Source of the DNA: Eubacteriales bacterium
Lineage (GTDB): Bacteria; Bacillota; Clostridia; Oscillospirales; QAKW01
Length of the DNA stretch: 64,000 bases
Direction of reading: 5' to 3'
NCBI GenBank assembly: GCA_045636365.1
Contig: JAZTXG010000012.1
Coordinates: forward strand, 6,559-70,558
This document shows, in pieces, positions 1 through 50,200 of this stretch. A program made the translations under genes and the position numbers. The notes beneath the pieces are model-generated. The model did no database searches. It was not told where the DNA came from and worked only from the letters and a program-made list of their open reading frames with translations. How positions within the stretch are numbered: the stretch's first letter is position 1; each line of letters begins with the position of its first letter.

Positions 1-3000
1 TCAAGATCTCGCTAAAGGCAAAATCGAATTCCGCAATACCTCCATCGAGCACCTTAAAGACCAGAACGATTGCATCGAACTCACTGTTTGCCGCAATGTT
101 GGCTGCATTGCTCCAAGCGGCGGTGAAGGTACCGTCTTCTTCATTTACTGTTTGATTTTTGTTCGCGCCGAAGGCGTCGGTCAGAGTGATGGACTCCAGC
201 TTCAACAAGTTCTTATTATAAGAACCGTTGATGGTCATACCGCTCCACGCATTCAGATAATCCTTGACCGAAACGGTCACAGTGACGGTATCGCCAATCT
301 TCGCATCGGTCTTATCAGCAGTAGCAATCAAATGGGGCTGCGCCTTGACATTGACAACAACCGTTTCGCTGCGCTCCTCATAATCCCAGACAGAAACCAT
401 CGGCTCTTCGTCGAAGGCGATTGCCTGATCGATCTCTGCATAGAAGGAAATTTCACCTTCGACCTTCGGGCTATAATAGAGATTCATTAAGGTGAGGGCC
501 GTCTCTGTTGAGATGTAGTCTGTGGACACCAAAATGAAATGAACGTATCCTTCGTCCTCATTCAGGAAAACCACTCCGGTCACATCGTCCCTATCGCTCT
601 GCCACTCATCGATATCCTCTTGGTCGATGGTAACCTCGCTCTTATCATAGTACAACTTCACCGAAAGCGCTTGCACGCGATTGTTGAGGTTGTTGACAGT
701 GAGTGTCAGGGCCTCTTTCCTATTCTTGATCGCAGCATCCGCAGTGCCGATCGACAGGAACATCGGATCCATATTTTCATATTGGTTTGCGATCGTGATG
801 ATTTGATCCTCTGCCTTGGGAGCGTAGGTTTGGGTATCGACTACGGTAAAGCCGCCGTTCGAATCGGGGGTCTTAACACTGTCTGTTACAAACCCTGCAC
901 CGAATTTGGCTTCGCCGTCTTGGTATGCTTTGAAGGGGATGGAAGCAAGCAAGATCTGCTCGCGGTCATCCTGAATGTTCTCAAGGGAGATCCAGGTAAA
1001 GACAATCTTGCCGTCTCCGGAGCGGAGCAATACCTGAGCGTCCTCTCCGCCCAGCGGATTGCAGACGATATCGCTCTCTTTGATGCGGATCCGCTCTTTA
1101 TCAAATTCCAAAACGACCGGAACGGTGCACCATTCGCTGCTATATTCATTCAGATAAAGATGGAGAACACTGTCGTCGCCTTCATCCATCGCGTTGCCCT
1201 TTTCGAGGACCATGGTCAGATGAGGGAATCTTATTTTTTTAGCGTCAACGATGAGCGCCTCGGCATCCGCCACATACTCATAGGGGTCCACATCGACATT
1301 CGCGTTGCCGTCGAAGGTCTTGACCTCGGTCAACGCTGCATCGAACTGCACATCGTCTTTAAATCCGTTTGTCTTGAAGGTGATGCTCAGAAGGGTGTTG
1401 TCCTTTTCGGCATCGATATTCGCGGCGCCTGCGGGGAAGACCAAAGAGATCTTACCGTCGACCGAAGTATCTACCGTCGGGGTAATTCCGCCAAAGGCCT
1501 TGGGAACAACCTCCTCGATGGTAAATACGCTTGCATCGTAGCTCAGCTCTGCGCTGAAGGAAGACCACAGATCGCTGTAGTCCTTCAGTTTCAGCTCCAC
1601 AGTGTACTCTTCACCCTCTTGAGCTTTGCTTTCGCCGACAATCTCCAAGAAGGTAGGAGCAAACAAAACAACCGGCGCGGACACAGGCGCTTCAGAGTAA
1701 GAACCTTCCGGCGCATACATTCCGCCATCGGTGGCAGGATCTTCCACAATGATACCGTTCTCGGGGAACGCGAAGGAAACGTTGGGATCGCCTTCATCAA
1801 GAACCTCAAAGACGAGTGTCATCGCTTCAAAGTTTCTACCCAAAGCAACAGCCTCATCGTTCATCCAGGCAGCCTGGATCGTACCAGGCTTGGTTTCGTC
1901 TGCCTCGAAGTACGCGAAGCCGTCGACCGAAGAAGTTGCTTCGATGAACTTCAGCTTCGTTTGATCGTAGTTTGCGAAGATGGACATTCCCAGCCAATTG
2001 TCTTGATATTCCGAGACATTGACGGTGTATGTAATTTGCTCGCCGACCTTGACGCGATCCTTAGAAACCGTTGCTCCCAAATGAGCTTTGGAGTTATCGA
2101 TTTCCAAAATAACCGTATCGCTCACTTCAGTCGCATCGTACCAACTCTCGGGAGCGTACTCTCCGTTGGCATCCAGAATTCCGTCGGGAACAAAGGAGAA
2201 GTTGAAACTTGCTTCGCCTTCCGCCAAAACGTCGAAGACGATTACCAATGCCTCAAAATTCGGATTTTCGGTCACGATCGCATCAGCATGTGCCCAGCAG
2301 ACCTTGATCTCGCCGTTTTCGTTTTTGATCTCCGGCTCGATGACCTCGTCCTGGAAATTTTTAGGAGTGATGGTCTTCACCGCGAGCTTGGCGGGATCAT
2401 AAGTTCCTTGAATGGTCATCGCGGACCAAAGATTTGCATAATCCTTAACGTTTACACGAACGGTAACTGTCTTGCCGACATAAGCGCTGTCTTCATCCAC
2501 TTTGACTTCCAAAGAGGTTGTGACATCGTTATAAAGCAACTCTACCGTATCGGATACCTTTGCATCGGCGGCATAGGTCTCGGTGGGGACCTTATCGCCG
2601 TTTTCGTCCAGAACTCCGTCGGGGATAAAGGAGAATTCAAATTTCTCTGTAGTGTTTTCGCCGGACAAGACCTTAAAGGTCAGTTCCATTGCGGTAAACG
2701 TATCGTCTGCCATAACAACGGTATCGTCGTTGAGCCAGTTCACCGCTATTTTACCGTTTTCATCTGCAATGACCGGCTCTCCGGCAATTCCGCCATCGCT
2801 GAAAGCGGCAAATTTGCTTTCTTCTTCAATCAGTTCAAATTTTTTGGCGTCATAAGTACCCATGATGGTCATGACCGCCCAATTATCTTTGTAGTCCACT
2901 ACGTCGACCTTGACGGTGATGGTCTCGCCGAGCTTGGCGGAGTCTTCCACTACATCGACGTTCAGCATCGTTCCCTGCACAGAAGGAGCGATCGCGATGG

Positions 3001-4399
3001 TCGCTGTTTTTTCTGCGCTGTCAAAATTGGAAACGAACTCGCCGTTGGCATCTGCAATACCGTCGGGAACAAAGGAGAAGGAAAGGTTGGCATCGCCTTC
3101 TTCCTTCACCTTGAAGGTCAGGGTCAGCGCGGAGAACTCCGGCTCCATATCGACTGCGTCGACATTAATCCAGGTCACACCCAGAACGCCGTCGATGCTA
3201 TCTTCAATCACCGCTTCGGTGCCGGAGATGGTATCTTTAAAGTCGATCGGCTCGACCTTTTGCAAGTCTAATTTATCTTTATCGTAGGATCCCTTGATGG
3301 TCATGGTCGACCAGGCATCTGCATAGTCCTTGACATTGACGATGACGGTAATTTCGCCGCCGACTGTCGCGGTAGAAGGAGCAACCACTTCCAGCCCCAC
3401 AAGGGTGGTGGACTCGCTGATGACGATCTCTTTTTCTACAGGCTCTTTGGAAAAACCGGTGGTAATTTGATCCGTTTCGTTTTCGCCGAAGATGCCGTCC
3501 TCTATGAAGGAGAAGGAGAGGTTGGCATCGCCCAGCGCTTTGACATTAAAGGTCAGAGTTAAGGCTTTGAATTCTGCATCTACGTCATCGACAATATTCT
3601 CATTGACCCAGACCGCCGAGATGGTTCCGTTTTCGACCTTAAAGATGGAGTCTTCCATGATTTCGCTGTTCTTAAACGTACCCTTGACGGACCGTTCTTC
3701 GTCCAGCTCCAATACATCCTTGTTGTAAGAACCGCGGATGGAGAGGGTCGACCAATTCTTGGCATAATCCTTGACCCAGACTTCGACGGTAATTTCATCG
3801 CCGACCACCGCAGTAGACGGAACAACCACGTCCAGATAAGTGGGAGTGGCCGTATCGATCGTGATGGTTTCGGTCGCCGGCTCTACACTGTATTTCGCTG
3901 TATCCAGCGGAGCAGAACCGCCTTCGGCCGCGACCAACATTTCGCTTTCCACAAAGTTGAAAGAGATCTCCGCCTCGCCCAACGCAGCATCCGCCTTGAC
4001 GGTCAGAGGAACAACCATTAAGGTCGCACCCTCTTCCGGAGCCACATCCGAAGTGGCAACCCAACCCGCAAGGATCTTGCCGCCCGAAATATCTGCGTCC
4101 TTGACCGTCAGCTCGGTATCGCCGACGTTAAAATCATATGTCTCCGGTTCGCCATCGGGCGCGAAGAGGTCGGTGCTGTATGTACCTGCAACCGCCATCC
4201 CGCTGAGAGCGACCGTATTATGAATCGTGACAACAGCGTTGACCGCATCCCCGGGCGCGACAGAAGTCAGCGGATTGCCTTCGCCATCCACCAATTCCAC
4301 CTTCAGTTCCATCGGGTCAGAAAGCGCCGAGGAAAAGACGGACGCCATAGAAAGCAGCATAACGATTGTCACAATTGTTGCTCCTATACGTTTGAACAT
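1..4399 (-). CDS. Secreted scaffoldin-like protein with a signal peptide and about ten tandem cohesin-like modules. The 3-prime end is cut by the window edge, so it is at least 1466 aa.
   Basis: Absent from the supplied ORF track because it runs off the window. The reverse complement of 4380-4415 reads GGAGGAtctctATGTTCAAACGT. Hand translation gives MFKRIGATIVTIVMLLSMASVFSSA (signal peptide). This is followed by repeated units of about 150 aa such as VVVPSTAVVGDEITVEVWVKDYAKNWSTLSIRGSYNKDVLEL...LTLTFNVKALGDANLSFSF. I checked the frame as open at 4399-2900, 2460-2390 and 190-119. The plus-strand ORFs here (for example 539..3271) look like antisense shadows. Confidence 0.8.
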   Translation of the reverse strand, partial: MFKRIGATIVTIVMLLSMASVFSSALSDPMELKVELVDGEGNPLTSVAPGDAVNAVVTIHNTVALSGMAVAGTYSTDLFAPDGEPETYDFNVGDTELTVKDADISGGKILAGWVATSDVAPEEGATLMVVPLTVKADAALGEAEISFNFVESEMLVAAEGGSAPLDTAKYSVEPATETITIDTATPTYLDVVVPSTAVVGDEITVEVWVKDYAKNWSTLSIRGSYNKDVLELDEERSVKGTFKNSEIMEDSIFKVENGTISAVWVNENIVDDVDAEFKALTLTFNVKALGDANLSFSFIEDGIFGENETDQITTGFSKEPVEKEIVISESTTLVGLEVVAPSTATVGGEITVIVNVKDYADAWSTMTIKGSYDKDKLDLQKVEPIDFKDTISGTEAVIEDSIDGVLGVTWINVDAVDMEPEFSALTLTFKVKEEGDANLSFSFVPDGIADANGEFVSNFDSAEKTATIAIAPSVQGTMLNVDVVEDSAKLGETITVKVDVVDYKDNWAVMTIMGTYDAKKFELIEEESKFAAFSDGGIAGEPVIADENGKIAVNWLNDDTVVMADDTFTAMELTFKVLSGENTTEKFEFSFIPDGVLDENGDKVPTETYAADAKVSDTVELLYNDVTTSLEVKVDEDSAYVGKTVTVRVNVKDYANLWSAMTIQGTYDPAKLAVKTITPKNFQDEVIEPEIKNENGEIKVCWAHADAIVTENPNFEALVIVFDVLAEGEASFNFSFVPDGILDANGEYAPESWYDATEVSDTVILEIDNSKAHLGATVSKDRVKVGEQITYTVNVSEYQDNWLGMSIFANYDQTKLKFIEATSSVDGFAYFEADETKPGTIQAAWMNDEAVALGRNFEAMTLVFEVLDEGDPNVSFAFPENGIIVEDPATDGGMYAPEGSYSEAPVSAPVVLFAPTFLEIVGESKAQEGEEYTVELKLKDYSDLWSSFSAELSYDASVFTIEEVVPKAFGGITPTVDTSVDGKISLVFPAGAANIDAEKDNTLLSITFKTNGFKDDVQFDAALTEVKTFDGNANVDVDPYEYVADAEALIVDAKKIRFPHLTMVLEKGNAMDEGDDSVLHLYLNEYSSEWCTVPVVLEFDKERIRIKESDIVCNPLGGEDAQVLLRSGDGKIVFTWISLENIQDDREQILLASIPFKAYQDGEAKFGAGFVTDSVKTPDSNGGFTVVDTQTYAPKAEDQIITIANQYENMDPMFLSIGTADAAIKNRKEALTLTVNNLNNRVQALSVKLYYDKSEVTIDQEDIDEWQSDRDDVTGVVFLNEDEGYVHFILVSTDYISTETALTLMNLYYSPKVEGEISFYAEIDQAIAFDEEPMVSVWDYEERSETVVVNVKAQPHLIATADKTDAKIGDTVTVTVSVKDYLNAWSGMTINGSYNKNLLKLESITLTDAFGANKNQTVNEEDGTFTAAWSNAANIAANSEFDAIVLVFKVLDGGIAEFDFAFSEIL

Positions 4400-4488
4400 A
4401 GAGATCCTCCTTCAAATACGCACTTATAAAATAACCAAAAAAGGGTATAAATACCCCTAACGGTACGTATCCATTATTAGTTATTAAT

Positions 4489-4552
4489 ATTATAACAGAG
4501 CCGTTGTCAAATTGACATTACCTTATGTGTCTTTTTTAACACACTTTGCGTA
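4489..4552 (-). promoter_or_regulatory. Putative promoter of the scaffoldin-like gene: extended -10 (TGtTATAAT), a weak -35-position hexamer GTCAAT, and a conserved 36-nt upstream element (copy A).
   Basis: On the minus strand, TATAAT is at 4494-4489, preceded by TGt. A 16-nt spacer follows, then a hexamer at 4516-4511. The element at 4517-4552 (plus strand ATTACCTTATGTGTCTTTTTTAACACACTTTGCGTA) recurs with the same spacing at 11405-11440 and 52646-52681. Confidence 0.45.
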
Positions 4553-4620
4553 ATTTTAAAATTTATTTTGCCGCGCATAAATCGCCCCGCTTTGCCCCTT
4601 TCGCCCCCCATTTTGCAGCT

Positions 4621-4766
4621 ATATCATCACCGCAAGGTGTATATCATCACGCGCCAGCGTGTATGAAATCAACCGAAGGTTGAATGTAACCACCGTAGGT
4701 GTATGTAATCACCGCAAGGTGTATGTAACCACCGTAGGTGTATGCCATTTGCCCTGCACGGGCAAA
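4621..4766. repeat. Tandem array of seven mini-hairpins of about 20 nt each (array A).
   Basis: The units are atcaCACCgcaaGGTGtat, atcaCACGCgccaGCGTGtat, aaaTCAACCgaaGGTTGAat, gtaacCACCgtaGGTGtat, gtaatCACCgcaaGGTGtat, gtaacCACCgtaGGTGtat and TTTGCCCtgcacGGGCAAA. The AT-rich flanks are conserved. The stems vary but remain complementary. Confidence 0.7.
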
Positions 4767-4799
4767 AAAAGTGCGTCAGGAGTTCCTGACGCACTTTTT
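4766..4799 (-). terminator. Rho-independent (bidirectional-looking) terminator downstream of the 4801-5640 gene.
   Basis: AAAAAGTGCGTCAGGagttCCTGACGCACTTTTT: a perfect 10-bp GC-rich stem flanked by an A-run and a T-run, immediately after the TAA stop at 4801. Confidence 0.75.
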
Positions 4800-4800
4800 A

Positions 4801-5640
4801 TTATTCTTCTTTGGATTTTTTGCGCAGCAGCAATGCGATGGCAAAGGCGCTGGCGCTGGCAACCATCAAGGAGATCCAGAGGATCAGGTCAAAATGGTCG
4901 CCGGTATCGGCGTTATCGGAATCGGGCTTGGTTTCGGGCTTTTGCTCCGGCTTGGGTTCCGGCTCCGGCTCTGTCTCGCCCTCTCCGCCGGGCTGGCCCG
5001 GTTGCTCGGGTTCCGGTTCGGGATCGGGGGTGGGCTCGGGATCGGGGGTGGGGTCGGGATCAGGCTCGGGTCCGGGGGCAGGCTCTCCCTGCTTTTTTGC
5101 CAAAGCAAAATAGCATTTGCTGCCGCCCGCCTTAAAGATCAGTTCTCCGTCTTTGATTTCGGAGGGAATCAAGGATTTTTGACTATCGGTAGTCAGGCGG
5201 TAGACCTCTAAATCCTCGGAGGAGACCTTGATGCGAATCTCGTCCCCTTCCTCTAATTCGATGCGCTGACCGGTGGTCTTATCGCGATAATAGACCTCAA
5301 AGGGCATGGCATCTTGGGTATCCAAGCCCTCGATGCACTCTTTAAACCAATCCAATGCTTCTTTATGATCGGGTTCAAAAAACCGCACCACCAGCTCCAG
5401 CTCCCCATTGGGCTCTGCGGGAGTGACAGCTAAAGCGCCCTCTTCTACCTCAATCTTATACAAATCGTCTTGCAGAGGGGCAGTATGCTGATTGGGTTCT
5501 TCCGCAGGAACATAGGTACCCTGCACTTGGATGGGAACCTCGCCCGGCAGTTGGGTAATGGTCGTCGAATTATCCGCTTGGGCGACGATGCCCAAAGCAA
5601 GCAGCATACATATTAAAATTGCGCCGATCCTTCGCTTCAT
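4801..5640 (-). CDS. Secreted protein with a Pro/Glu/Asp-rich linker and a C-terminal tail resembling a cell-wall sorting signal.
   Basis: ORF track 4801..5646. GGAGG abuts the first ATG, so the start is more likely the MKRR ATG at 5640. Features: signal peptide [22 protein letters not shown]; linker [28 protein letters not shown]...[11 protein letters not shown]; tail NADTGD, a hydrophobic stretch [21 protein letters not shown], then RKKSKEE. Confidence 0.8.
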
Positions 5641-5670
5641 GCTCATCCTCCAACTAAATTATTGTCGCTA

Positions 5671-6192
5671 TTACTTATTCTTTACCGCGGGCTTCAAGGA
5701 GACCGAGCCGCTGCTCAAATAGGTTTCCGGCTCATAGCCCATCACCTTAAAGGCCAGCGGTTCATCGTCCGCTACCGCGCGGGAAAATTCAATGGTCTGC
5801 AGATATTCGCCGGGCTTAATTAAGCCGGTCTCGGCGATGATTTCACCCTGCGCATCCAATACACGCAATTTCAGCCAGCTTTCGTTTTTGGGAACGTTAT
5901 AGAACCAGATATCCGCTTGGTTTTGCTCATTGATCAAAACACCGCCGCAAATGTATACGGTATAGGGCAACCCCTCTTGATGGATTTTCGACCATAACAG
6001 CCCTTTTAATTCATCGGTTTCTTCCAATTTTCCCGCCACCGCCGCTTCATCAAAGGCGGGGGGGACAAATTGGGGTTGCGCTCCGGGCTTAAAATGAATC
6101 AACGCCGCAACCATCGCGCAAACCGAGACGATACAAACCGCCCCGATGACGATCAAAGCAATTTTCAGTTCTTTTCTTGAGATTCTTCGCAC
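5671..6192 (-). CDS. Single-pass (N-terminal anchor) membrane protein with an extracytoplasmic domain; paralogue of 8243..8794.
   Basis: A 173-aa ORF with a GTG start and a weak RBS. The TM segment is IALIVIGAVCIVSVCAMVAALI. The C-terminal region ADIWFYNVPKNESWLKLRVLDAQGEIIAETGLIKPGEYLQTIEF aligns with GMVYFSFTNPYESNQDMVLQVFVKDKLIAQSKLLPPGNALSQLPL of the 8243..8794 product. Confidence 0.7.
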   Translation of the reverse strand: MRRISRKELKIALIVIGAVCIVSVCAMVAALIHFKPGAQPQFVPPAFDEAAVAGKLEETDELKGLLWSKIHQEGLPYTVYICGGVLINEQNQADIWFYNVPKNESWLKLRVLDAQGEIIAETGLIKPGEYLQTIEFSRAVADDEPLAFKVMGYEPETYLSSGSVSLKPAVKNK

Positions 6193-6285
6193 GTTTTTTG
6201 ATACCTGTTCTTTCTTTTTCCCTTGGTTTCTTTCGTCAAAAACGGCTGCAGGCGGAAATTCGCCGGCAGCCGCCTAAAAATTCAT

Positions 6286-7347
6286 TTATGAAATGGTGAC
6301 AGTAAAGATACCCAGAATGCCAGCCTCTTCTTCAGTAATTCTGCCGTCAACAGTAACCGTACCGGAAATAGCACCTTTGGTGCCATCGGGATTTTCCACA
6401 TTAGCCTCATTCACAGTAGCTTTATTAACGGTAACATCTTCTACAGCTGCCTTCAATGCGGTCTCAGCACCGCCTTCAGTGTCTTTATAGGAAAGGGAAG
6501 CCTTAACATCTTGGCTGGAATGATTCTCAATATTAACGGTAAGAGTAGCTTCTTTGACAGACCATGCGCCACTCTCAGAAACATCCCACTTATGTGTTTT
6601 GGTGTTCCACTCGTTAGTATCGGCATCTATAAAGGTAAATACCGCCAAGTCATTCCAAGATAAACCAACCTTATAAGCGTGGGAATCACGAGATTCATCA
6701 ATATACTCGCTCCCCACATCGATTTTTACTTCATTGCCGGGTGCTTTATTGGTAGTAATAGTCGCTTTATTGGAAGCAGGTTCTTCGGGATCTTGAGGTT
6801 GGTCGGGGTCTTCTTCCGGCTGGACTTCGATCGGGGCGGACTCCACCTCCGCGGAACTAAACGCACTGCCATCTGTATTTACAATGGGTTCCTCTGAACC
6901 AAGTTCCGCCTGACCGTCCGGGGTGAAACCGGCAGAGATGATTGCGTTTGTCGTTTCGGCAAGTGCGGTAAATTGCAGTTGAACCAAATAATCGGCGGCG
7001 GGAACACCATCGGAGCTGATCCAGTTGATCAGAATGGTACCCTCACCGTTTTTTACATCGGCAACGACCGTTTGAATATCCTCCAAGGCAGCATTGCCGA
7101 GAACGCCGGTCTCTTTATCAAAGGACAGATAGGCGGGGTCATAGGTGACTTTTACCGTCATCGCAGACCAGGTGTTCGCGGTATAATTCAATGCATTTAC
7201 GGTGGCTGTCACCGTTTCGCCTTCCTTTACCGCAGTTTGATCTACGGTGATCGCCAAAGAGGGAGCGGTTCCTTCCGCGCTCACAAAGGCGGCCAGCCCT
7301 GCCAACAGCAGGGCGCAGATCATCAAAATGCTGAATACTCGCTTCAT
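6286..7347 (-). CDS. Secreted protein: signal peptide, one cohesin-like module, an acidic Pro-rich linker and the shared C-terminal domain (CTD).
   Basis: ORF track 6286..7362 has a TTG start that overlaps the RBS. GGAGGatatatctATG places the start at 7347 (MKRVFSILMICALLLAGLAAFVSA). The cohesin-like stretch is ITVDQTAVKEGETVTATVNALNYTANTWSAMTVKVTYDPAYLSF. The CTD at 6289-6678 is highly similar to that of 7585..8151. Confidence 0.85.
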   Translation of the reverse strand: MKRVFSILMICALLLAGLAAFVSAEGTAPSLAITVDQTAVKEGETVTATVNALNYTANTWSAMTVKVTYDPAYLSFDKETGVLGNAALEDIQTVVADVKNGEGTILINWISSDGVPAADYLVQLQFTALAETTNAIISAGFTPDGQAELGSEEPIVNTDGSAFSSAEVESAPIEVQPEEDPDQPQDPEEPASNKATITTNKAPGNEVKIDVGSEYIDESRDSHAYKVGLSWNDLAVFTFIDADTNEWNTKTHKWDVSESGAWSVKEATLTVNIENHSSQDVKASLSYKDTEGGAETALKAAVEDVTVNKATVNEANVENPDGTKGAISGTVTVDGRITEEEAGILGIFTVTIS

Positions 7348-7584
7348 AGATATATCCTCCAAAAACTATATTTGGGGTTTATTGCTCAAATATCGCCGGT
7401 CTTTTTTTGCAGGCCGGAGATAGTTCAGCCATAAACCAAAACAAATGTTTTTCGGGGCGCGGCGGCTGCAAGGATGCTCGCCGCGCCGATTTTTCATGAA
7501 AAACGAATTCGCTTAATGTAAGCTTGGCAGCATGCCAAGGGCGGATTGCCGCCCTTGGCAAACTGCTTTAGATTAAAGGATTAA

Positions 7585-8151
7585 TTAGCCCTCAACAGGA
7601 GCAGTATACTCGGCAACGGTAACAGTGAAGGTACCCATAACGCCAGCTTCTGCTTCAGTGATTCTGCCGCCAACAGTAACGGTACCGGAGATAGAACCTT
7701 CAGTGCCTTTGGGAGCTTCTTCTTCAGTCTCATTCACAGCAGCTTTATCAACAATAACATCTTCTACAGCAGCCTTCAATGCGGTTTCAGCGCCACCTGC
7801 AGCATCTTCATAGCCAAGGCTAACTTTAACATCTACGCAAGAATGGTTCTCGATATTAACGGTAAGAGCAACTTCTTCAGCAGACCAAGAACCACCCTCA
7901 GTAACATCCCACTTGTGTGTTTCGACATTCCACTCGTTTTCGTTGGCATCAGTAAAGGTGATTGCAGCCAAGGCGTCCCAAGTCAGAACAACTTTGTAGT
8001 TAGGAACATCAGTTTGCTCATCGGAGTATGCACCGGTAACTTCGATCTTAGTATTGGCATCGGGAAGAGCGGTGATATCAGCAGCAAAAGCAACAGCGGA
8101 CATAGAGGCGATCATCGCGATCGCGAGAACGATAGATAATACCTTTTTCAT
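7585..8151 (-). CDS. Small secreted protein consisting essentially of a signal peptide plus the shared CTD.
   Basis: A 188-aa ORF. RBS AAGGAG lies 9 nt before the ATG. Signal peptide MKKVLSIVLAIAMIASMSAVAFA. The CTD is YKVVLTWDALAAITFTDANENEWNVETHKWDV...LTVNIENHS...GGAETALKAAVEDV...GTFTVTV. Confidence 0.85.
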   Translation of the reverse strand: MKKVLSIVLAIAMIASMSAVAFAADITALPDANTKIEVTGAYSDEQTDVPNYKVVLTWDALAAITFTDANENEWNVETHKWDVTEGGSWSAEEVALTVNIENHSCVDVKVSLGYEDAAGGAETALKAAVEDVIVDKAAVNETEEEAPKGTEGSISGTVTVGGRITEAEAGVMGTFTVTVAEYTAPVEG

Positions 8152-8242
8152 TTTTTAAGTCTCCTTAAAATAATTTTTTATATTTGACCGCTTAACGCTC
8201 CTTGCAGCGCAAAAGCGGCTAAATACCTTAAATAAGTTTGAT

Positions 8243-8794
8243 TTATTCCTGCACCTTAACGATGAGAGGAATATCGGTTTGAAGGATGGCTTTTTCGCCG
8301 GTTTCATAATAATAGGCGGCGGTATATTTGCCATCATAGCCGCCGGCGGAAAGCTTCACACCATCCCGCAAGGGAAGCTGGGAAAGGGCATTTCCCGGGG
8401 GCAATAATTTGGATTGGGCAATCAACTTATCCTTAACAAACACCTGCAGGACCATATCCTGATTGGATTCATAGGGGTTGGTGAAGGAAAAATAGACCAT
8501 CCCATCGGAAAGATCCACACGGACCTCTTTTTGATATTGAATACTCACCGAGCCGCCGCCCTGCTCCTGCTCCAATTTCTCGTTTTCCTTATCGGAATCG
8601 GGGGTGGGGGTAGCGTTCGGTTCGATCTCCTGCGGGGCATAGTCCGGCGCAAGAGTGGGGGTGGTATCGCGGAAGAAGATGGACCAGATGGTGACACTGC
8701 AGCTGGTAATCAACAGCAACAGCAGCAAGATCAGCGCAGCAAGCATCCAGCGTTTCTTTTTGCGATTATTTTCTTGATTGACGTGCTTACTCAA
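8243..8794 (-). CDS. Single-pass (N-terminal anchor) membrane protein; paralogue of 5671..6192.
   Basis: A 183-aa ORF. RBS AGGAGG lies 6 nt before the TTG start. A basic N-terminus is followed by the TM segment WMLAALILLLLLLITS. The extracytoplasmic domain aligns with the 5671..6192 product. The gene lies 21 nt after the upstream stop, so it is probably co-transcribed. Confidence 0.75.
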   Translation of the reverse strand: MSKHVNQENNRKKKRWMLAALILLLLLLITSCSVTIWSIFFRDTTPTLAPDYAPQEIEPNATPTPDSDKENEKLEQEQGGGSVSIQYQKEVRVDLSDGMVYFSFTNPYESNQDMVLQVFVKDKLIAQSKLLPPGNALSQLPLRDGVKLSAGGYDGKYTAAYYYETGEKAILQTDIPLIVKVQE

Positions 8795-8815
8795 CGGGGA
8801 CCTCCTGCGTTATTC

Positions 8816-11296
8816 TTAAACTGCTTTATCAATAGTCACTGTAATGGTGCCGAGCACCGTCTTCGTATCGGTCGAAAGTTCTGCGCCGGCGGGCAGGTCG
8901 CCCAACTCAAATTGAACCGTTGCCGAATTATATGCATCGCCTTCGGCCTTATCGACTGTCAACGACGATACTGCAGTTCCATCCTGCTCGAATGTATGGG
9001 TCAGCCCGACAAGGTCGGTCTTCTCCGGGTTTACAGCAAATTCAAACGTCGCTGTAATATCAACCTTACCTTGGTTGGTGACGGTGATCCAATTTTCGGC
9101 TTCGCTGTCTGCATTTAAGCAGGTCCAACCGCGGCCATCCCAAATATGGTTTTGGGGATCCCAGGTGCCGAAAGAATAGGTAAATGCCATTGCGCCCCAT
9201 TCGATTTTCACCGAAATTTCCGACGCGGCCGTTTCGATCTTGACTTCGACTTCGGCGGGAGTATCTGTATAGTTATCGCCATCCAGCTCTGCGCCGTTTT
9301 GATAGTTTCCGCCTTCAAGAAACGCTACAGAAACGAACCGGCGAAGTTGCTCTTCGGTCAGGTCTTCCTGCCTTACTTTCAGCGTAAATACCATAATGTC
9401 TTGATTCGGCAAGTACATTGGCAAAGGATCGCCGTTGAACCAGCAGGCAAGCAACGTTCCTTTGGCGTGTTCGGTGATGAACTCGGAATGAGCGCCTTCA
9501 CCATCGTCGTTAAACGCGTTCTTATCTTCGACAGAAACAAACTCGAATACGTCGGAATCAAACAACGCCTTGAGGGTCATTACTTCCCAAGCGCTTGTAA
9601 AATCCTTGATCGAGACAGCAAAACGAACTTCTTTGCCCTGCTCAATAGCGCCGATTTCTTCCCCTTCGGGAACATCCACGCCGTCGATCTGATCGATCCG
9701 GATGGAGAGTTCGGGCTTGCCACGAACGGTTATGGGCTTCACGGCAGACGTTTCGATATAACCGGCAACATCATCGCCGGAAAGGTTACCCCCCGCCAGG
9801 AAAGAGGCGGTGATGGGGAATTCGGATCCGTCTACCGTATAATCACTTTTAATTGTTATGGGGATCTCAAGGATCGTTCCGCTTGAGGCGCCCAGCTTGA
9901 GATCATCGCCTTCTTCAGAGAAAATGGTGATACCAAGTTTGTTTCCGCTAATCACCGGCACAACGGCGACATCACTGTCGCCTAATGCAACGATATTATC
10001 CGTATCTACCTCAAAAACGTTTTTATTGAGGTTGACAAGGATACTCATCATCGACCACGGATCAACATAATCAGTGATGTTCACTTGAAGAGTGAATTTC
10101 TCACCGCGAGAAAAGGCGGGTTTATCTTCCTCAACCACTACAGATAAGTAGGGGAACACCTTCTGCGTTACCTTGACTTCAGCTGTACCCTCTTCGTGCT
10201 CTTCAACATAATCGTCGGCGGAGGTCAGCAGTTCTTCTTCGCCTGTCGCGGCATCGTATTTAAAGTTGCCTTCTTGCTGGAAAGAGGTCCCGATTTCGAG
10301 CGCGCTTCCCGCGCCTTGGGCTTCCAAGGTCAGCTCCAGAATATCTGCATCGGATGCACCGTCTTTCAGAATCATATTGCCCAAAGAGGGGCTGAAGAAG
10401 CAGATTGAAAGCGGTTTTGCAGCATCTTCGGTCTCTGCCACCAGCATGGAGACGGGATCCGAAGTTTCGGAGTCAACAAGATTTCCTAAGTCTTCCGAAC
10501 TTATATACTTGAATTTATTGCCATTGTATTGAAGGTCCAGAGTCATCATCATCCAGCCTTCGTAGAAATTGTTCAGGCAAACGATTGCTTTGACTTTTTC
10601 CCCTTGCTCAATTTCGGTAACCGGATTTCCGCTCTCATCCACCAACCGCATGGTCAGATGCGGCTGATACACACGGACCTCTCTTTCAAAATCGGAGGTG
10701 GCGGCATAAGCTTCGGTAGCGATGAACTCCGGTTCGTCACCAACATACCCCGCGACACTATCGTCTACAAAGGTAAAAGAGAGTTTCGCGTTATCGGTCT
10801 CCGCAATTGCTTTGAATTTCAAATCCATCAATGCGGCAGTTCCCTCTACGGCAGGGAGGTTGGTGCCTTGATTGCTCATCATAAAAACCATCAAGGAACC
10901 GCTTGCTTTATTAGACTCATCAATCGAGAGGGTGAACTCCTCGCCGATCTTCGTTTCAAAACCCTTATATTCCAGCTCCGCCGGATCATAGGTCAATTCG
11001 GCAACAAAGATCGCCCAATCGCCCCTATAATTTTCCAGCGAGACAGAAATATCAAACTCTTCGTCCAGCGAAAGATGCTCTTTCTCTGTACTCATCACCA
11101 CGGAAGTCGGCTCAGAGCCGCCTTCGGTGTTTAACAATGCGGGCTGCTCGGAAGCGTAATTATTCAGTTGAACTGTTGCATCCAACGCATCGCTCTCAAG
11201 TACGCTTTCGTCGGCAGCAGAGACGACAAAGACCGAGCATACCATGGAGCAGAGCATTGCCAGCGCAACAGCGATTGACCATACACGCTTATTCAC
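8816..11296 (-). CDS. Secreted protein with four cohesin-like modules and a divergent copy of the shared CTD.
   Basis: ORF track 8816..11365. GGAGGtatttcGTG makes GTG at 11296 the likely start (VNKRVWSIAVALAMLCSMVCSVFVVSA signal peptide). The module signatures are ISVSLENYRGDWAIFVAELTYDPAELEY, AIVCLNNFYEGWMMMTLDLQYNGNKFKY, LQVNITDYVDPWSMMSILVNLNKNVFEV and FAVSIKDFTSAWEVMTLKALFDSDVFEF. The CTD at 8819-9217 reads ISVKIEWGAMAFTYSFGTWDPQNHIWDGRGW...ITVTNQG...GTITVTI. Confidence 0.85.
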   Translation of the reverse strand: MNKRVWSIAVALAMLCSMVCSVFVVSAADESVLESDALDATVQLNNYASEQPALLNTEGGSEPTSVVMSTEKEHLSLDEEFDISVSLENYRGDWAIFVAELTYDPAELEYKGFETKIGEEFTLSIDESNKASGSLMVFMMSNQGTNLPAVEGTAALMDLKFKAIAETDNAKLSFTFVDDSVAGYVGDEPEFIATEAYAATSDFEREVRVYQPHLTMRLVDESGNPVTEIEQGEKVKAIVCLNNFYEGWMMMTLDLQYNGNKFKYISSEDLGNLVDSETSDPVSMLVAETEDAAKPLSICFFSPSLGNMILKDGASDADILELTLEAQGAGSALEIGTSFQQEGNFKYDAATGEEELLTSADDYVEEHEEGTAEVKVTQKVFPYLSVVVEEDKPAFSRGEKFTLQVNITDYVDPWSMMSILVNLNKNVFEVDTDNIVALGDSDVAVVPVISGNKLGITIFSEEGDDLKLGASSGTILEIPITIKSDYTVDGSEFPITASFLAGGNLSGDDVAGYIETSAVKPITVRGKPELSIRIDQIDGVDVPEGEEIGAIEQGKEVRFAVSIKDFTSAWEVMTLKALFDSDVFEFVSVEDKNAFNDDGEGAHSEFITEHAKGTLLACWFNGDPLPMYLPNQDIMVFTLKVRQEDLTEEQLRRFVSVAFLEGGNYQNGAELDGDNYTDTPAEVEVKIETAASEISVKIEWGAMAFTYSFGTWDPQNHIWDGRGWTCLNADSEAENWITVTNQGKVDITATFEFAVNPEKTDLVGLTHTFEQDGTAVSSLTVDKAEGDAYNSATVQFELGDLPAGAELSTDTKTVLGTITVTIDKAV

Positions 11297-11376
11297 GAAA
11301 TACCTCCACACAAAACTTTCAAAATGAATGAACCCCCGCGCCATATTGCAAAGGGGATACTTCAACCATTGACTTT

Positions 11377-11440
11377 ATTATAGCAGAGCGAAAAACAAAT
11401 TTACATTGCTTTATGTTGCTTTTTTTAAACGATTTGCGTC
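11377..11440 (-). promoter_or_regulatory. Putative promoter of the 8816-11296 / 8243-8794 unit, with the conserved upstream element (copy B).
   Basis: On the minus strand, TGcTATAAT has its -10 at 11382-11377. A 16-nt spacer follows, then the hexamer GTAAAT at 11404-11399. The element at 11405-11440 is ATTGCTTTATGTTGCTTTTTTTAAACGATTTGCGTC. Confidence 0.45.
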
Positions 11441-11511
11441 TTTTTTTAAAAAATTAGTGCATTTTATACATTTTTTTGCATCATTCTTTATTTCAGTCGT
11501 CGAAATAGACT

Positions 11512-11553
11512 ATGAAAAAAGAAGGCTTGCTTTACCCCATAGCAAAGCAAGCC
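11512..11553 (-). terminator. Rho-independent terminator downstream of murA.
   Basis: Stem GGCTTGCTTT / AAAGCAAGCC with a 10-nt loop. On the minus strand it is followed by ttcTTTTTTc. Confidence 0.65.
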
Positions 11554-11584
11554 CTATATATTAAATATGAAAGGTTTTGAAAAA

Positions 11585-12841
11585 TCAATCGGGGACGATA
11601 CGGATATCGGCGCCCAGCGCGGAGAATTTTTCCACAATCCGCTCATAACCGCGGCGGATATGGTCAATATCCTCAATGGCGGTGGTTCCCTGCGCCGCCA
11701 GACCCGCGATGACCATCGCCGCTCCCGCCCGCAGGTCGCAAGCCCGCACCGGCGCGCCCAGCAGCTTGCCGCCGCCCTTGACGGTGGCGATCTTGCCCGC
11801 GACCGCAATATCGGCGCCCATACGGATCAGCTCTTCGGTATATTTGAAGCGGCTTTCCCAGATGCTTTCATCGATTTTGCTGGTGCCTTCTGCCCGCAGC
11901 ATAACGATTGCCATCTGCGGCTGCATATCGGTGGGGAAGCCGGGGTAGGGCATCGTCTTAATATTGGTTTTTTTCAGCGGTGCGGTGGCATCCACTAAAA
12001 TGCTATCGTCGTATTCCTCGATATGGACACCCATCTCCTCCAATTTGGCGGTGATACATTCCATATGCTTGGGGATGACATTTTTGACCAGCACCTTTCC
12101 GCCGGTCGCCGCCGCGGCAGCCATATAGGTGCCCGCTTCGATCTGGTCGGGGATGACCGCATAAGAGCCGCCCCGCAGCTCGGCCACACCCTGCACCTTG
12201 ATGACATCGGTACCCGCGCCGCGGATATTGGCGCCCATCGAGTTCAAAAAGTTTGCCACATCGACGATATGGGGCTCTTTGGCGACGTTTTCAATCACCG
12301 TCTGCCCTTCGGCCTTGACCGCCGCCAGCATCGCATTGATGGTGGCGCCCACCGAGACCATATCCAGATAGATGCCCGAGCCTTCCAGCTTTTCGGCATG
12401 GCAATGGACATTTCCGTGCAGAATATCCACCTGCGCACCCAGCTGCTCAAAGGCTTTGATATGCTGATCCATCGGGCGCGCGCCCAGATGCCAGCCGCCG
12501 GGCAACGCCACTGTGGCATTGCCGAACCGCCCCAAAAGCGCGCCCAAAAAATAATAGGAAGCGCGGAACTTGCGGGCATATTCATAGGGGACCTCGGTGC
12601 AGCGCACCGCCGAGCAATCCACTTCCAAGCAGTTTCCGCCCGACCGACGCACCTTCGCGCCCATGGCAATCAAAATATTGCAGATATTTTCCACATCGCT
12701 GATCTGGGGGACGTTTTCAATTCTGCAAACGCCGTTGACCAGCATCGCGGCAGGCAAAATCGCCACAATGGCGTTCTTTGCGCCCGCAATATCTACCTCA
12801 CCTTCCAGCCGGCAAGGTCCGTTGATGATGATTCGATCCAT
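11585..12841 (-). CDS. murA: UDP-N-acetylglucosamine 1-carboxyvinyltransferase (MurA family); the catalytic-loop Cys position is Trp.
   Basis: A 418-aa ORF that aligns end to end with E. coli MurA from memory: GAKNA (Lys22), LPGG-x-x-x-GARP loop, PTDMQ, DLRAGAAMV and HIRRGYERI. The loop reads LPGGWHLGARPMD, against LPGGCTIGARPVD in E. coli. Confidence 0.85.
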   Translation of the reverse strand: MDRIIINGPCRLEGEVDIAGAKNAIVAILPAAMLVNGVCRIENVPQISDVENICNILIAMGAKVRRSGGNCLEVDCSAVRCTEVPYEYARKFRASYYFLGALLGRFGNATVALPGGWHLGARPMDQHIKAFEQLGAQVDILHGNVHCHAEKLEGSGIYLDMVSVGATINAMLAAVKAEGQTVIENVAKEPHIVDVANFLNSMGANIRGAGTDVIKVQGVAELRGGSYAVIPDQIEAGTYMAAAAATGGKVLVKNVIPKHMECITAKLEEMGVHIEEYDDSILVDATAPLKKTNIKTMPYPGFPTDMQPQMAIVMLRAEGTSKIDESIWESRFKYTEELIRMGADIAVAGKIATVKGGGKLLGAPVRACDLRAGAAMVIAGLAAQGTTAIEDIDHIRRGYERIVEKFSALGADIRIVPD

Positions 12842-47244: not shown

Positions 47245-50200
47245 TTATGCTGCGAGGGTGCGAACAAGCCATTCGTGAACGATTGCATAAACGTCAGCAA
47301 TCGCGAATTCGCCGTCCTCATTCATATCAGCATTCTTCATATTGATGGGTTTTGCATCAAGCTTTTCAGCCTTGACATACAATGCTGCGAGAGCATCGGC
47401 CAAATTAACATCGCCGTCACCGTTTGCATCGCCCAGGACACCGTCGAAACCAATGGTCGCAGTTGCGCCCGGAATTTCGATGGTGGTGCCTTCGGCATCG
47501 TTTGCTTTAGCACTCGCCACCTCAACTTTGAAGGTACCGCCCACGGCAGTAACATCTGCTGCGATGGTAACAGTTACGTCATCGCCATTGGAAACTGCAT
47601 ACTCGCCGCCGTTCCACTCAACACCATTGACATGGGTAATGGTATATGCGCCTTCGATGGTGAAGGTCAATACAGCAGTCGCCAGATTTTCAGGCAGGTC
47701 GATGACGATATCGCCATTTCCCTTGGGATTCAAGGTGATACCTGCTGCAGAAGCAGTGCCATGAATCTTATACTCTTTGACCAAGCAGCCTTCGTGTGCA
47801 CACTGTCTGTAAGACTTATTTGCATCGTCATCGTCTTCTTTCCAGCCTTCGCCGCCTTCGAAGTCATGGCCATTCTCTTTAGTTTCTTCGGCCTCTACCA
47901 TTGTGGGGTGAATCTCACAATCGAATTTCCAGAAATCGTTTTCGGTACAGTCTTCGTTGTGGACTTTTTTACCTTGGCAGGTTTCCTCATAATCGGCCCC
48001 ACAAGGTTCGCAATGAGCTACGTGTTTGCTCTCGCCGGTTGCCGAAATGGCGGAATCGTAATCCCAGTCTCTGGTGCAGCTTTCGGTCTTGGTATAACCG
48101 CAATCACCGCAAGCATAGGTATGCTTGTTTGTTTCATCCACATGGTTGCACTCGAGATTGGGATGTTCACAGACATCGATGGTTACAACGATAGCTGCAT
48201 CTTCGGTAACGGTCAGCGCGGTACCATCATATGCACCGCCCGAAGCGACTTCAACATTGACGATGGTTGTCTCGACACCATAGCCGAGTGCATCGCGCAG
48301 TTCCGCGTTTGTATATGCCTGGTTGGCATTGATATAGATGGTCTTGGTTTCCTCGCCAATGGTGGCTTCAACCTTGACAATCTTATCGGTTTCTGTACCG
48401 GTCGGGCGGATACCGCCATCCGCGGCCAGTTTGAAGTAGACGTCGCCTTCTGCTCCGGTGTTGGTTTTGTTGATCTCATAAGCTGCTGCACCTTCGGTCA
48501 TATCGCTATGAACCCAAGGATTATTTGCGCCGGCACCTGCGGTTGCACTTGTTCCAACACGATAGGATTGGGTGATATCCCCTACACCGTATACATTGCT
48601 TATATTCGCCGAGGCTGCAGTAAAGGCATCCTCGTCGGTAAAGCCAAACAGGTAAGCGGTCGCATTATCGGGATTTTTATTTGTCAGATTGATAACAATG
48701 TTTTTGAAAGAACCATTATCAGCCTGACCGGTGCTACGTCCGCCGTAAACACCATAGGCAACGTTTCTGTTGAAACCAGATTCATGGGGGTCTGTTTTAT
48801 TCACCGTTCCGTAGAAAGTAAAGCCGTCTACATTTACTACGGTTTCAGCATTGTCTGCATAAGCGCCTGCCAATGCACTAATATGATTACCTTTCACAGC
48901 CACAAGTGTTGCGCCGGACCAGACCTTATTAAAGGTCACAGTAGCTTCTTCATTAACAGCACCAAAGGTCGAAACGTTGGACGAAGCGGTGCCGGTAGTT
49001 CCGCGCATTGTACCGCTGTTGATACCAAATTCGGTAATAGTAGCTCCATCGAGAAGCGCAAACAGACCGACGTGGTTGTTTATATAATCAGCCTTGGCTC
49101 CCGGCTCGCCAACCTTAATGTTTTTAATATAAACATTCTCAAAGCCATAGCCATGACCGTTGATGGTACCGGCGAAAAATCTCAATGTACCGGCATCATC
49201 AGCATTACCCTTGCTACCCAGAGGCCACATATAGTCTGTATTTATTTCAGCCTCTTCGTCTTCGGTTGCAGCCGTATTATCTTGCGCGAAGTCGATATCA
49301 TCGATCAGGTGGAAGGTGGTATTTTCGAAATATGCACCTGCTTCGCCATCATTTGCTGCTTTATCCATTGCAAACCAGTCGGCTTTGTCTACGATCAGCC
49401 AGTTGGCTTTTGCGGGTTGATAATTCTTATATACATCGTAATCTTTGAAAGCGGGGATGCTATTCAAATATGTGGTCTCATCGAATGTCGCGGGCGCATC
49501 GTTGATCTCGATGAGCAAAGTGCCGCCGTTCATATGAGCAACTGCAGCTTCCAGCTCGGCCTTTTCTTCGCTCGTTGCCAACTCAAGCCATGCGTCCATA
49601 CCGATTTGGCCTTCGCCGGGAGTCTTGAAGTATTTAGCGTCGAATTTGGCGTTTGCCTGCAAAGCTTCGATTTCAGCAATCTTAGCTTCCAGTTGAGCTT
49701 TCAGATTGTTGATTTCTTGTTCATCATCGCCGATGGTGTAGGAAACGGTTACATCGCCTTCGATGAGATAGTTGCCTTCGCCATCCGGGTCGATCGGAGT
49801 AGGAGTTTCTTCTACGAGTTTAGAAACCACAATGTCTGTTGCACCGTTGGGAAGCAGCGCCGCTACGTCAACTGCAGCGCCAGCATTCGCATAGATGGGA
49901 TCTGCCTCTGCGTTGTTTTCCATAATGGCATACTTCACAATGCGGTCTGCTTTATCACCAAAGCGGATATCGCCGTTTTTGTTGATGGTGAAGTAGACCT
50001 CACCAATACCGCTTGCAGCGGGTTGGGCGTTGTTGATCTCCCATGCACCGATCTTATCGGAGTCAACTTCTCTATTGTTGACAGTTGTTCCTCCTGAAGT
50101 ATCGCCGCCATTTCGATAGATCGGGGCGCCTACGCTAAAATTATTGATCGCCACATAGTCCGAATACTTACTATCCGAAACATACAACGACATTGTGTCT

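Follow-up and report, generated by a model that had tools for sequence, protein, structure and literature searches.

A tryptophan-rich domain of secreted clostridial proteins and its conserved gene cassette: a candidate module of surface assembly

The six-gene locus and its three X domains

The present analysis concerns a 64,000-nucleotide stretch of DNA from an Eubacteriales bacterium (GenBank assembly GCA_045636365.1, contig JAZTXG010000012.1, positions 6,559 to 70,558), hereafter called the window, in which the list of open reading frames (ORFs) places six consecutive genes on the minus strand from position 11365 down to 4801. Three of the encoded proteins, of 849, 188 and 358 amino acids (aa), share a domain to which the working name X was given; the other three are referred to as p183, p173 and p281. 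A sequence-only reading of the window had noticed a Trp-rich domain common to three adjacent secreted proteins, and all three ORFs, together with every motif that was quoted, were found on the minus strand. The genes, the X copies and the limits of the cassette are listed below by window position.

8816 to 11365, minus strand: cassette gene 1, for the class-1 X protein (849-aa ORF), in which four cohesin-like modules lie between the signal peptide and a C-terminal X
8825 to 9241, minus strand: X copy 3 (class 1), aa 709-847, hidden Markov model (HMM) positions 19-151, 90.3 bits with the window-free profile
8243 to 8794, minus strand: p183 gene, for a protein with an N-terminal membrane helix
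7585 to 8151, minus strand: gene of the 188-aa class-2 X protein, a signal peptide and X with nothing else
7609 to 8061, minus strand: X copy 1 (class 2) with its extension, aa 31-181 of the 188-aa protein by profile
6286 to 7362, minus strand: gene of the 358-aa class-2 X protein, with a signal peptide, one cohesin, an acidic linker and X
6289 to 6744, minus strand: X copy 2 (class 2) with its extension, aa 207-358 of the 358-aa protein by profile
5671 to 6192, minus strand: p173 gene, for a protein with an N-terminal membrane helix and an ectodomain
4801 to 5646, minus strand: p281 gene, for a protein with a signal peptide, a strand, a domain of about 150 aa, a stalk and a C-terminal anchor
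11522 to 11555, minus strand: hairpin resembling a terminator (15-bp stem) that follows murA and marks where the cassette transcription unit is limited upstream
4766 to 4799, strand not assigned: palindromic hairpin, its 15-bp stem set between runs of A and T, directly 3' of the p281 stop, the downstream limit of the cassette
11585 to 12841: murA, the upstream neighbour of the cassette

The probable true start of the 849-aa ORF is a GTG at 11296, judged from the orthologues in two related loci (L001 and L002), which begin MNKRVWSI. Pfam recognized four stretches of Cohesin PF00963 in this protein (E 2.2e-14), and the single cohesin of the 358-aa protein occupies aa 37-166, at about nucleotides (nt) 6865-7254 (E 3.2e-7). 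Copy 3 opens straight at the strand 'SVKIEWGAMAFTY' without an N-terminal extension; copies 1 and 2 carry the strand motifs IEVTGAY (8026-8046) and IDVGSEY (6703-6723), respectively. As had been read from the sequence, the 188-aa protein is the domain alone, preceded only by its signal peptide.

Pairwise BLAST gave 63% identity between copies 1 and 2 across 151 aa (E 8e-64) and marginal matches between copy 3 and the other two (E 0.03 and 7e-4). An independent test profile, built from 36 unrelated family members and zero window sequences, matched the three copies at 81.3, 81.7 and 90.3 bits, corresponding to E values of 1e-18 to 1e-20 for a database size of 1.84e9 proteins. Since this window-free profile finds all three copies, chance similarity and low complexity are excluded, and the folded model described below speaks for the same rejection, so that the low-complexity explanation named by the earlier reader as a possible refutation does not apply. 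The span assigned to the domain at that time was somewhat too short, because the conserved N-terminal strand of copies 1 and 2 had been omitted; the wider profile bounds are those listed above.

When 1.84 billion cluster representatives were scanned with a profile of the three copies, a check that the sequence-only reading had proposed, 1487 of the clusters (at 50% identity) had a match at E<=1e-3 and 253 had one at E<=1e-10. The consensus of the family is vYSVDIxWGsMEFTYt..GTWNPxTHxY...aW....NkITVTNHSN..V...GT(I/V)TVTI. Amongst the 150 best X representatives, 83 consist of a signal peptide and X only, which supports the earlier view of an autonomous folded unit; X is C-terminal in 40, N-terminal in 19 and internal in eight. 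The C-terminal placement described from the window's copies thus holds for them but is not universal in the family.

A word-index homologue search returned the query alone, or ten proteins when a profile was used, with no named relatives, and the only name found on cluster members by cluster look-ups was 'hypothetical protein [Clostridia bacterium]'. It was also observed that the exact 358-, 849- and 281-aa ORF sequences (as delimited, two of them with doubtful upstream starts) are not in the 15-billion-protein collection, in which the exact 188-, 183- and 173-aa sequences are present; such unindexed sequences may be the reason that the word-index search missed the 63%-identical paralogue. No relative was found in the viral contigs of IMG/VR, and a phage origin was rejected on this basis.

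Fold and divergence of the X domain

With a 37-sequence alignment, AlphaFold2 gave an all-beta model of about ten strands with a mean predicted local distance difference test (pLDDT) score of 79.3 and a predicted template modelling (pTM) score of 0.66; with the three window copies only, the pLDDT was 36 and the model was unusable. According to the former model, X is a folded beta-sandwich rather than a stretch of low complexity, and it has no recognisable relative. Neither Pfam nor NCBIfam matched inside X in the window proteins or in 17 further family members, all matches (cohesin, LRR_5, GLUG, CBM26, ubiquitin and a sub-threshold choline-binding repeat) falling in the passenger parts. No match for X was found in the PDB by single-sequence search or by profile search, the latter returning zero matches, and the entries 2x34 and 2x32 ('X158') were dismissed as relatives at E 0.6. 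The Foldseek comparison that had been suggested for the isolated domain was run against PDB and BFVD and yielded nothing at E<=1e-3, the best matches being generic sandwiches with template modelling (TM) scores of at most 0.44. The weak and non-significant matches included Caf1 and PapD-complex subunits (E 0.05-0.1, TM 0.25-0.28) and the CBM2 and CBM61 sandwiches of carbohydrate-binding modules (CBMs).

The profiles of SLH, LysM, CWB1/2, dockerin and CBM families likewise had no match within the X region. The sequence-only reading had called the domain unassigned and had been unable to place it among the SLH, LysM, dockerin or CBM patterns, and these searches agree with it on both counts. In the conserved strands of X, hydrophobic residues including Trp alternate with polar residues, a periodicity by which the conserved Trp probably face the core. 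Since this periodicity points coreward, the Trp-richness of X provides no evidence for a sugar-binding face. A literature search for a described clostridial equivalent found none, and X and its three partner families, which have no curated family and carry only 'hypothetical protein' names, appear to be undescribed.

The X proteins are also the fastest-diverging products of the locus. Between the window and L001 or L002, the flanking housekeeping proteins are 87-98% identical, p183 and p173 78-88%, p281 73-82% and the X proteins 34-65%. Within the 358-aa protein and its L001 orthologue, the cohesin part is 80% identical and the X part 40%, and the class-2 X paralogues of one genome are more alike (63% in the window; 59% in L001, between the genes at L001:14966-15466 and L001:15619-16719) than they are to their orthologues (about 40%). 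X is therefore the hypervariable module of the locus, and its class-2 copies change together. The likeness of copies 1 and 2 looks like the outcome of concerted evolution or cassette swapping, either by gene conversion or because exposed copies are kept mutually fitting, and the fast divergence fits an exposed, co-evolving module.

The conserved cassette, its two X classes and the partner proteins

The cassette is widely conserved. The window MurA is 97-98% identical to those of L001 and L002, which derive from 'Clostridia/Eubacteriales' metagenome-assembled genomes of goat-gut and other origin, and 58-68% identical to those of more distant loci, many of them titled Oscillospiraceae. The same six genes adjoin murA in L001 and L002, and the same arrangement was found around very different sequences on the unrelated metagenomic contigs L081 and L083. 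All ORFs of 79 metagenomic loci, mostly from the human gut, were scanned with profiles of X and the three other cassette families. Across about 80 loci, a one-strand order recurs in which a large protein ending in X is followed by p183, two to five X proteins, p173 and p281, although p183 is the first gene in some loci. Content was tallied in those 25 loci whose flanks measure at least 2.5 kb on each side: all four families are present in 16, four hold X with p183 and p173, one holds X with p183, one X with p173, and three hold X only, these being a single locus seen three times. Altogether, X occurs with p183 in 21 of the 25.

In the sister species represented by L003 (MurA 90% identical), murA is followed directly by the orthologue of the neighbouring scaffoldin and the six-gene cassette is missing; as L003:5454-5745 and window 4400-11585 show, the whole block has been inserted or deleted between these two genes. 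A minimal cassette was also noted at L163:963-8537. It lacks p173 and p281 and encodes p183, a pair of small X proteins and a class-1 protein whose passengers are Listeria-Bacteroides repeats; a divergent histidine kinase and response regulator pair adjoins it.

Two conserved classes of X, tied to operon position, are represented in the window, class 1 by the 849-aa protein and class 2 by the 188- and 358-aa proteins. The class-2 core is preceded, in small and large proteins alike, by a conserved strand with the consensus s-I-d-V-k-G-k-Y-v-a-G (I-x-V-x-G-x-Y), whereas the class-1 core begins right after the passenger and the strand is absent. The match to the X profile starts at position 15 or later in 26 of the 27 X genes that stand before p183 and in one of the 147 that follow it, the other 146 starting at position 14 or earlier. 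Upstream of the core, the motif [IV]x[IV]x[GAV]x[YFH] was present in none of the 21 unique class-1 sequences and in 67 of the 90 unique class-2 sequences. Protein size does not explain the extension: the rule that every large X protein would be without it was rejected in favour of operon position. In all class-1 proteins X is C-terminal. One recent duplicate and one old copy, as the three domains had first been described, is not the right account of them: copy 3 belongs to a separate conserved class encoded before p183, and copies 1 and 2 to the other.

Two subtypes can be distinguished within class 2 by their strands, I-x-V-x-A-K-Y/F...P-D/E-V and V-x-G-T/S-Y..G. They co-occur in L081, L084, L103, L115, L117 and L135, and both are present together in most operons.

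The same strand was found on p281, a protein otherwise unrelated to X. Eighteen of 25 unique p281 proteins carry the motif 8-20 residues past the signal-peptide cleavage site, compared with seven of 226 control ORFs with signal-peptide-like N-termini, and in the window it reads IQVQGTY (nt 5512-5532). Most p281 proteins resemble the A-K-Y subtype. Alignment of the p281 and X families by hhalign is limited to this N-terminal strand segment; the p281 domain, p183 and p173 are not homologous to X by the same method, and such a relationship was rejected for all three. The monomer model of X leaves its first 24 residues, the conserved strand among them, unpacked; the pLDDT of the strand is about 60.

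The membrane proteins p183 and p173 are built alike. In p183, a short basic cytoplasmic tail precedes a single N-terminal membrane helix, which a PDYAPQ linker joins to a beta-rich ectodomain of about 110 aa; in p173 a short basic tail and an N-terminal membrane helix are followed by a Pro-rich linker and a beta-rich ectodomain of similar size (about 110 aa). The two families are remote homologues (hhalign probability 98.4%, E 4.6e-15), and no relative of either was found in Pfam, NCBIfam or the PDB, nor any detectable relation to PapD-like chaperones. In p281, the signal peptide and the domain of about 150 aa lead to a Pro/Glu-rich stalk, a C-terminal hydrophobic helix and a basic tail. Most p281 relatives have [SP]PxTG[DE] ahead of the helix and a K/R tail, and two of them, in L114 and L097, score above the curated threshold of TIGR03063, the sortase-B-target model. 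The window p281 ends in NADTGD, a hydrophobic helix and RKKSKEE (nt 4804-4914). A sortase gene was not found in the window or the loci by a crude scan for the TLxTC motif only. The X proteins have signal peptides but neither a sorting signal nor a membrane helix, and their C-termini (...FTVTVAEYTAPVEG, ...FTVTIS and ...ITVTIDKAV) bear no hydrophobic or basic tail.

The passengers attached to X vary widely in the family and include cohesins, BspA-type leucine-rich repeats (LRR), GLUG, Listeria-Bacteroides repeats, beta-helices, Calx-beta, CBM26 and ubiquitin-like domains, modules of the types usual in surface or adhesion proteins. In the window the passengers are five cohesins, of which the class-1 protein has four and the 358-aa protein one. 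Elsewhere in the window, a 1764-aa protein (47248-52539, minus strand) ends in a type I dockerin (PF00404, aa 1702-1750) and could be bound by the cohesins of the X proteins and by those of a big neighbouring scaffoldin. This multi-cohesin scaffoldin (1-4399, minus strand) has at least 1466 aa, runs off the window start and apparently has its own promoter. Its L003 orthologue (L003:5745-10598, 1618 aa) ends in SLH domains (PF00395, E 5e-23); standing beside the X cassette, it thus points to two anchoring solutions for cohesin scaffolds in one genome.

On human-gut contigs, some class-2 X proteins carry a signal peptide followed by a ubiquitin-family domain (PF00240, E 1e-19 to 1e-28), namely those at L084:9665-11239, L114:8567-9871 and L092:9665-10978, as well as P0008 and P0050. 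From this architecture, such ubiquitin-like domains are predicted to be secreted and surface-displayed in gut Clostridia. A further protein, P0023 (297 aa), has X fused to choline-binding-like wall repeats (Pfam E 0.0012, 19.2 bits against a cutoff of 27), which could be an alternative anchor replacing p281.

Comparison with known systems and the role of X

The closest analogue of the cassette is the WxL/Csc cluster, known from Lactobacillales and Listeria. Such a cluster consists of small WxL-only proteins (about 180 aa), large adhesin-passenger proteins with a C-terminal WxL domain, a DUF916-DUF3324 membrane protein and usually a small LPxTG protein (PMC9772566; PMC10599100; PMC1534035), and AlphaFold2 models have a strand of the membrane-anchored partner completing the WxL sandwich (PMC10599100). 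Like the WxL/Csc clusters, the X cassette combines small domain-only proteins with large ones whose passengers stand ahead of a C-terminal domain, and adds a beta-sandwich partner anchored in the membrane and a protein of the sortase-substrate type. This organization, alike by analogy and not by homology, was seen in the window and in L001, L002 and L081, as well as in about 80 metagenomic loci. In both systems the small and large versions form distinct classes and the proteins lack a covalent anchor; the conserved Trp of X are probably buried, and the WxL papers also place those of WxL in the core. An N-terminal strand is a further shared feature, complementation by a partner strand having been proposed for WxL from AlphaFold2.

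The differences are of sequence, topology and host. Two Trp-x-Leu motifs on adjacent strands, about 68-106 residues apart, are the hallmark of WxL (PMC9772566). X has no W-x-L motif in the window copies or in its consensus, which shows WG-M-F-Y, W-P--H, a third W and the C-terminal strand GT(I/V)TVTI. The WxL model PF13731 had no match at E<=1 in the three window proteins or at E<=0.1 in 17 relatives, and NCBIfam gave none; the Pfam and NCBIfam models of WxL, DUF916 and DUF3324 matched no protein scanned, and non-homology is judged from these models only. The membrane partners of X are a paralogous pair anchored by an N-terminal and not a C-terminal helix, and X is not confined to the C-terminus in class-2 proteins. 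Its hosts are gut Clostridia; Bacilli account for 99% of the WxL proteins of Firmicutes (PMC9772566). The X cassette therefore resembles the WxL surface complexes but is apparently not homologous to them.

Three other systems bear comparison. Donor-strand-complemented fibres comprise TasA fibres, archaeal threads and cannulae as well as the chaperone-usher pili (Fim, Pap, Caf1), and in these pili PapG/FimH form the tip, PapA/FimA the shaft and PapH the terminator. As in these fibres, the strand in the X cassette is borne by all subunit-like proteins except the first-encoded, passenger-bearing one, X itself is a predicted beta-sandwich, and the terminal anchor protein p281 has a strand and no acceptor domain; unlike them, the cassette has passengers on many 'shaft' proteins, belongs to a Gram-positive-type envelope and shows no significant similarity of sequence or structure. 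Anchoring scaffoldins of cellulosomes, such as SdbA/OlpB of C. thermocellum and ScaE of Ruminococcus, are cohesin arrays that end in SLH domains or sortase signals. The X proteins of the window similarly have cohesins followed by a putative C-terminal attachment module, with a dockerin protein in the same window, but X takes the place of SLH or LPXTG, has operon partners of its own and carries quite different passengers in other organisms. Several secreted beta-sandwich proteins, a large adhesin-bearing protein and a sortase-substrate base are also found in sortase pili. In the X cassette the sorting signal is on p281 alone, and since the X proteins lack C-terminal LPXTG-type sorting signals, their identification as sortase-polymerised pilins was rejected.

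On balance, X is probably a protein-protein assembly or tethering module of a conserved surface complex, with strand complementation as the most likely form of contact. The anchoring or binding role suggested by the sequence-only reading fits this genomic context. The anchorless X proteins would be held on the cell by non-covalent contacts among the X domains, p281, p183 and p173, the free N-terminal strand of one partner being inserted into the sandwich of the next by beta-strand complementation. The class-1 protein would stand outermost, followed by the class-2 proteins, with p281 at the base, fixed to the wall or membrane by its C-terminal anchor of the sorting-signal type, and p183 and p173 may act as membrane-bound assembly or retention factors. 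Such an arrangement is the simplest that can be offered, because the X proteins are secreted without an anchor, a membrane pair and an anchored partner are encoded with them, and the strand occurs on all but the first-encoded component. In the present organism, the displayed passengers would be the cohesins; because a dockerin protein is encoded in the same window, the cassette would serve as an anchoring scaffold for dockerin-bearing proteins.

Several points weigh against this proposal. The surface location, the contacts, the strand complementation and the order of parts are all inferred, and the roles given to p183 and p173 are putative. The strand could be an extra edge strand folded in cis and misplaced by a shallow alignment, a pLDDT of about 60 being not very low. 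Passengers at the N-terminus of class-2 proteins precede the putative donor strand, unlike the case of classical donor-strand pilins. The p281 signal of the window is degenerate (NADTGD) and matches no anchor model, and for this reason the protein may be membrane-anchored only. Some cassettes are without p281 and p173 (L163, L100), and the locus represented by L108-L110 (about 4.7-6.9 kb) has four tandem X genes, with products of 134, 401, 338 and 269 aa, and no p183, p173 or p281 within the flanks.

A direct attachment of X to peptidoglycan or a secondary wall polymer, in the manner of SLH, WxL, CWB2 or LysM, with each X protein binding singly and the partners being accessory, is an unlikely alternative. 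The X proteins are secreted without an anchor of their own, X occupies in all class-1 proteins the usual place of anchoring modules, and the neighbouring scaffoldin's orthologue uses SLH for the same job. The WxL domain has been reported to bind peptidoglycan (PMC9772566), and the conserved aromatic, His and Asn residues of X, together with its weak, non-significant likeness to CBM2 and CBM61, are also in line with a binding surface. The conserved Trp, Tyr, Val and Ile lie on one side of the strands, though, and this side is probably core-facing. A wall binder would be expected to be conserved like its polymer, and X is the fastest-evolving part of the locus. Wall binding also leaves unexplained the bare, cargo-free domain in 83 of the 150 representatives, the strict link of the strand to operon position and the same strand on the unrelated anchor protein p281. 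In P0023, moreover, the wall repeats fused to X would be redundant were X itself a wall binder.

It is similarly doubtful that the components form a true filament, a new Gram-positive pilus or fibre joined head-to-tail by donor-strand exchange, with a tip adhesin of class 1, a shaft of class 2, a sortase-anchored p281 as terminator or base, and p183 and p173 as membrane-bound chaperones of assembly. This explanation shares the evidence for the assembly module, and the acceptor-only, donor-plus-acceptor and donor-only parts parallel PapG/FimH, PapA/FimA and PapH. The two class-2 subtypes (I-x-V-x-A-K-Y and V-x-G-T-Y), together in most operons, and an extension that is not self-packed in the monomer model would also suit a fibre. 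Caf1 and PapD-complex subunits are amongst the Foldseek matches, but these are not significant, no cassette protein matched a PapD-like chaperone or an usher in Pfam, NCBIfam or the PDB, and bulky passengers flank X on one side or the other in many class-2 proteins, an unusual build for shaft subunits. Nothing shows polymerisation rather than a small defined hetero-oligomer. That the cassette represents an unrecognised Gram-positive strand-complementation fibre or stalk, built without sortase polymerisation or a PapD-type chaperone and with p183 and p173 as a new type of assembly factor, is put forward as speculation of low probability.

A third explanation, that the X proteins are soluble secreted ligand binders (lectin-like, substrate-capturing or host-binding) on a stable Ig-like scaffold and are clustered only for co-regulation, would agree with a generic beta-sandwich that has no specific structural match, with high variability if ligands change, and with the X genes lacking partner genes in L108-L110, but is very improbable: even where sequences are very divergent, X genes stand in tight and ordered synteny with those of two membrane-anchored proteins and of a third protein fixed to wall or membrane, the strand motif is common to X and p281, and the passengers (cohesins, LRR, GLUG) are typical cell-bound modules.

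Four families that are unnamed in Pfam and NCBIfam thus form a conserved operon on many gut-metagenome contigs, mostly human, and the modules of this operon are of kinds that serve in adhesion, in the capture of polysaccharides and in contacts with the host. Phages or host antibodies may target the hypervariable X domains, and the pattern of no strand, strand with domain and strand only provides a directly testable model of assembly. WxL clusters are linked to virulence and colonisation in enterococci and Listeria, and the X cassette, if the assembly reading is true, would be their clostridial counterpart. Were the fibre to prove real, it would mean cohesins or cellulosome-like complexes on a strand-exchange appendage in this organism, and LRR adhesins and secreted ubiquitin-like domains on that of its human-gut relatives. 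If X is the assembly module favoured here, the cassette would give cohesin scaffolds a new means of cell attachment in addition to SLH domains and sortase signals.

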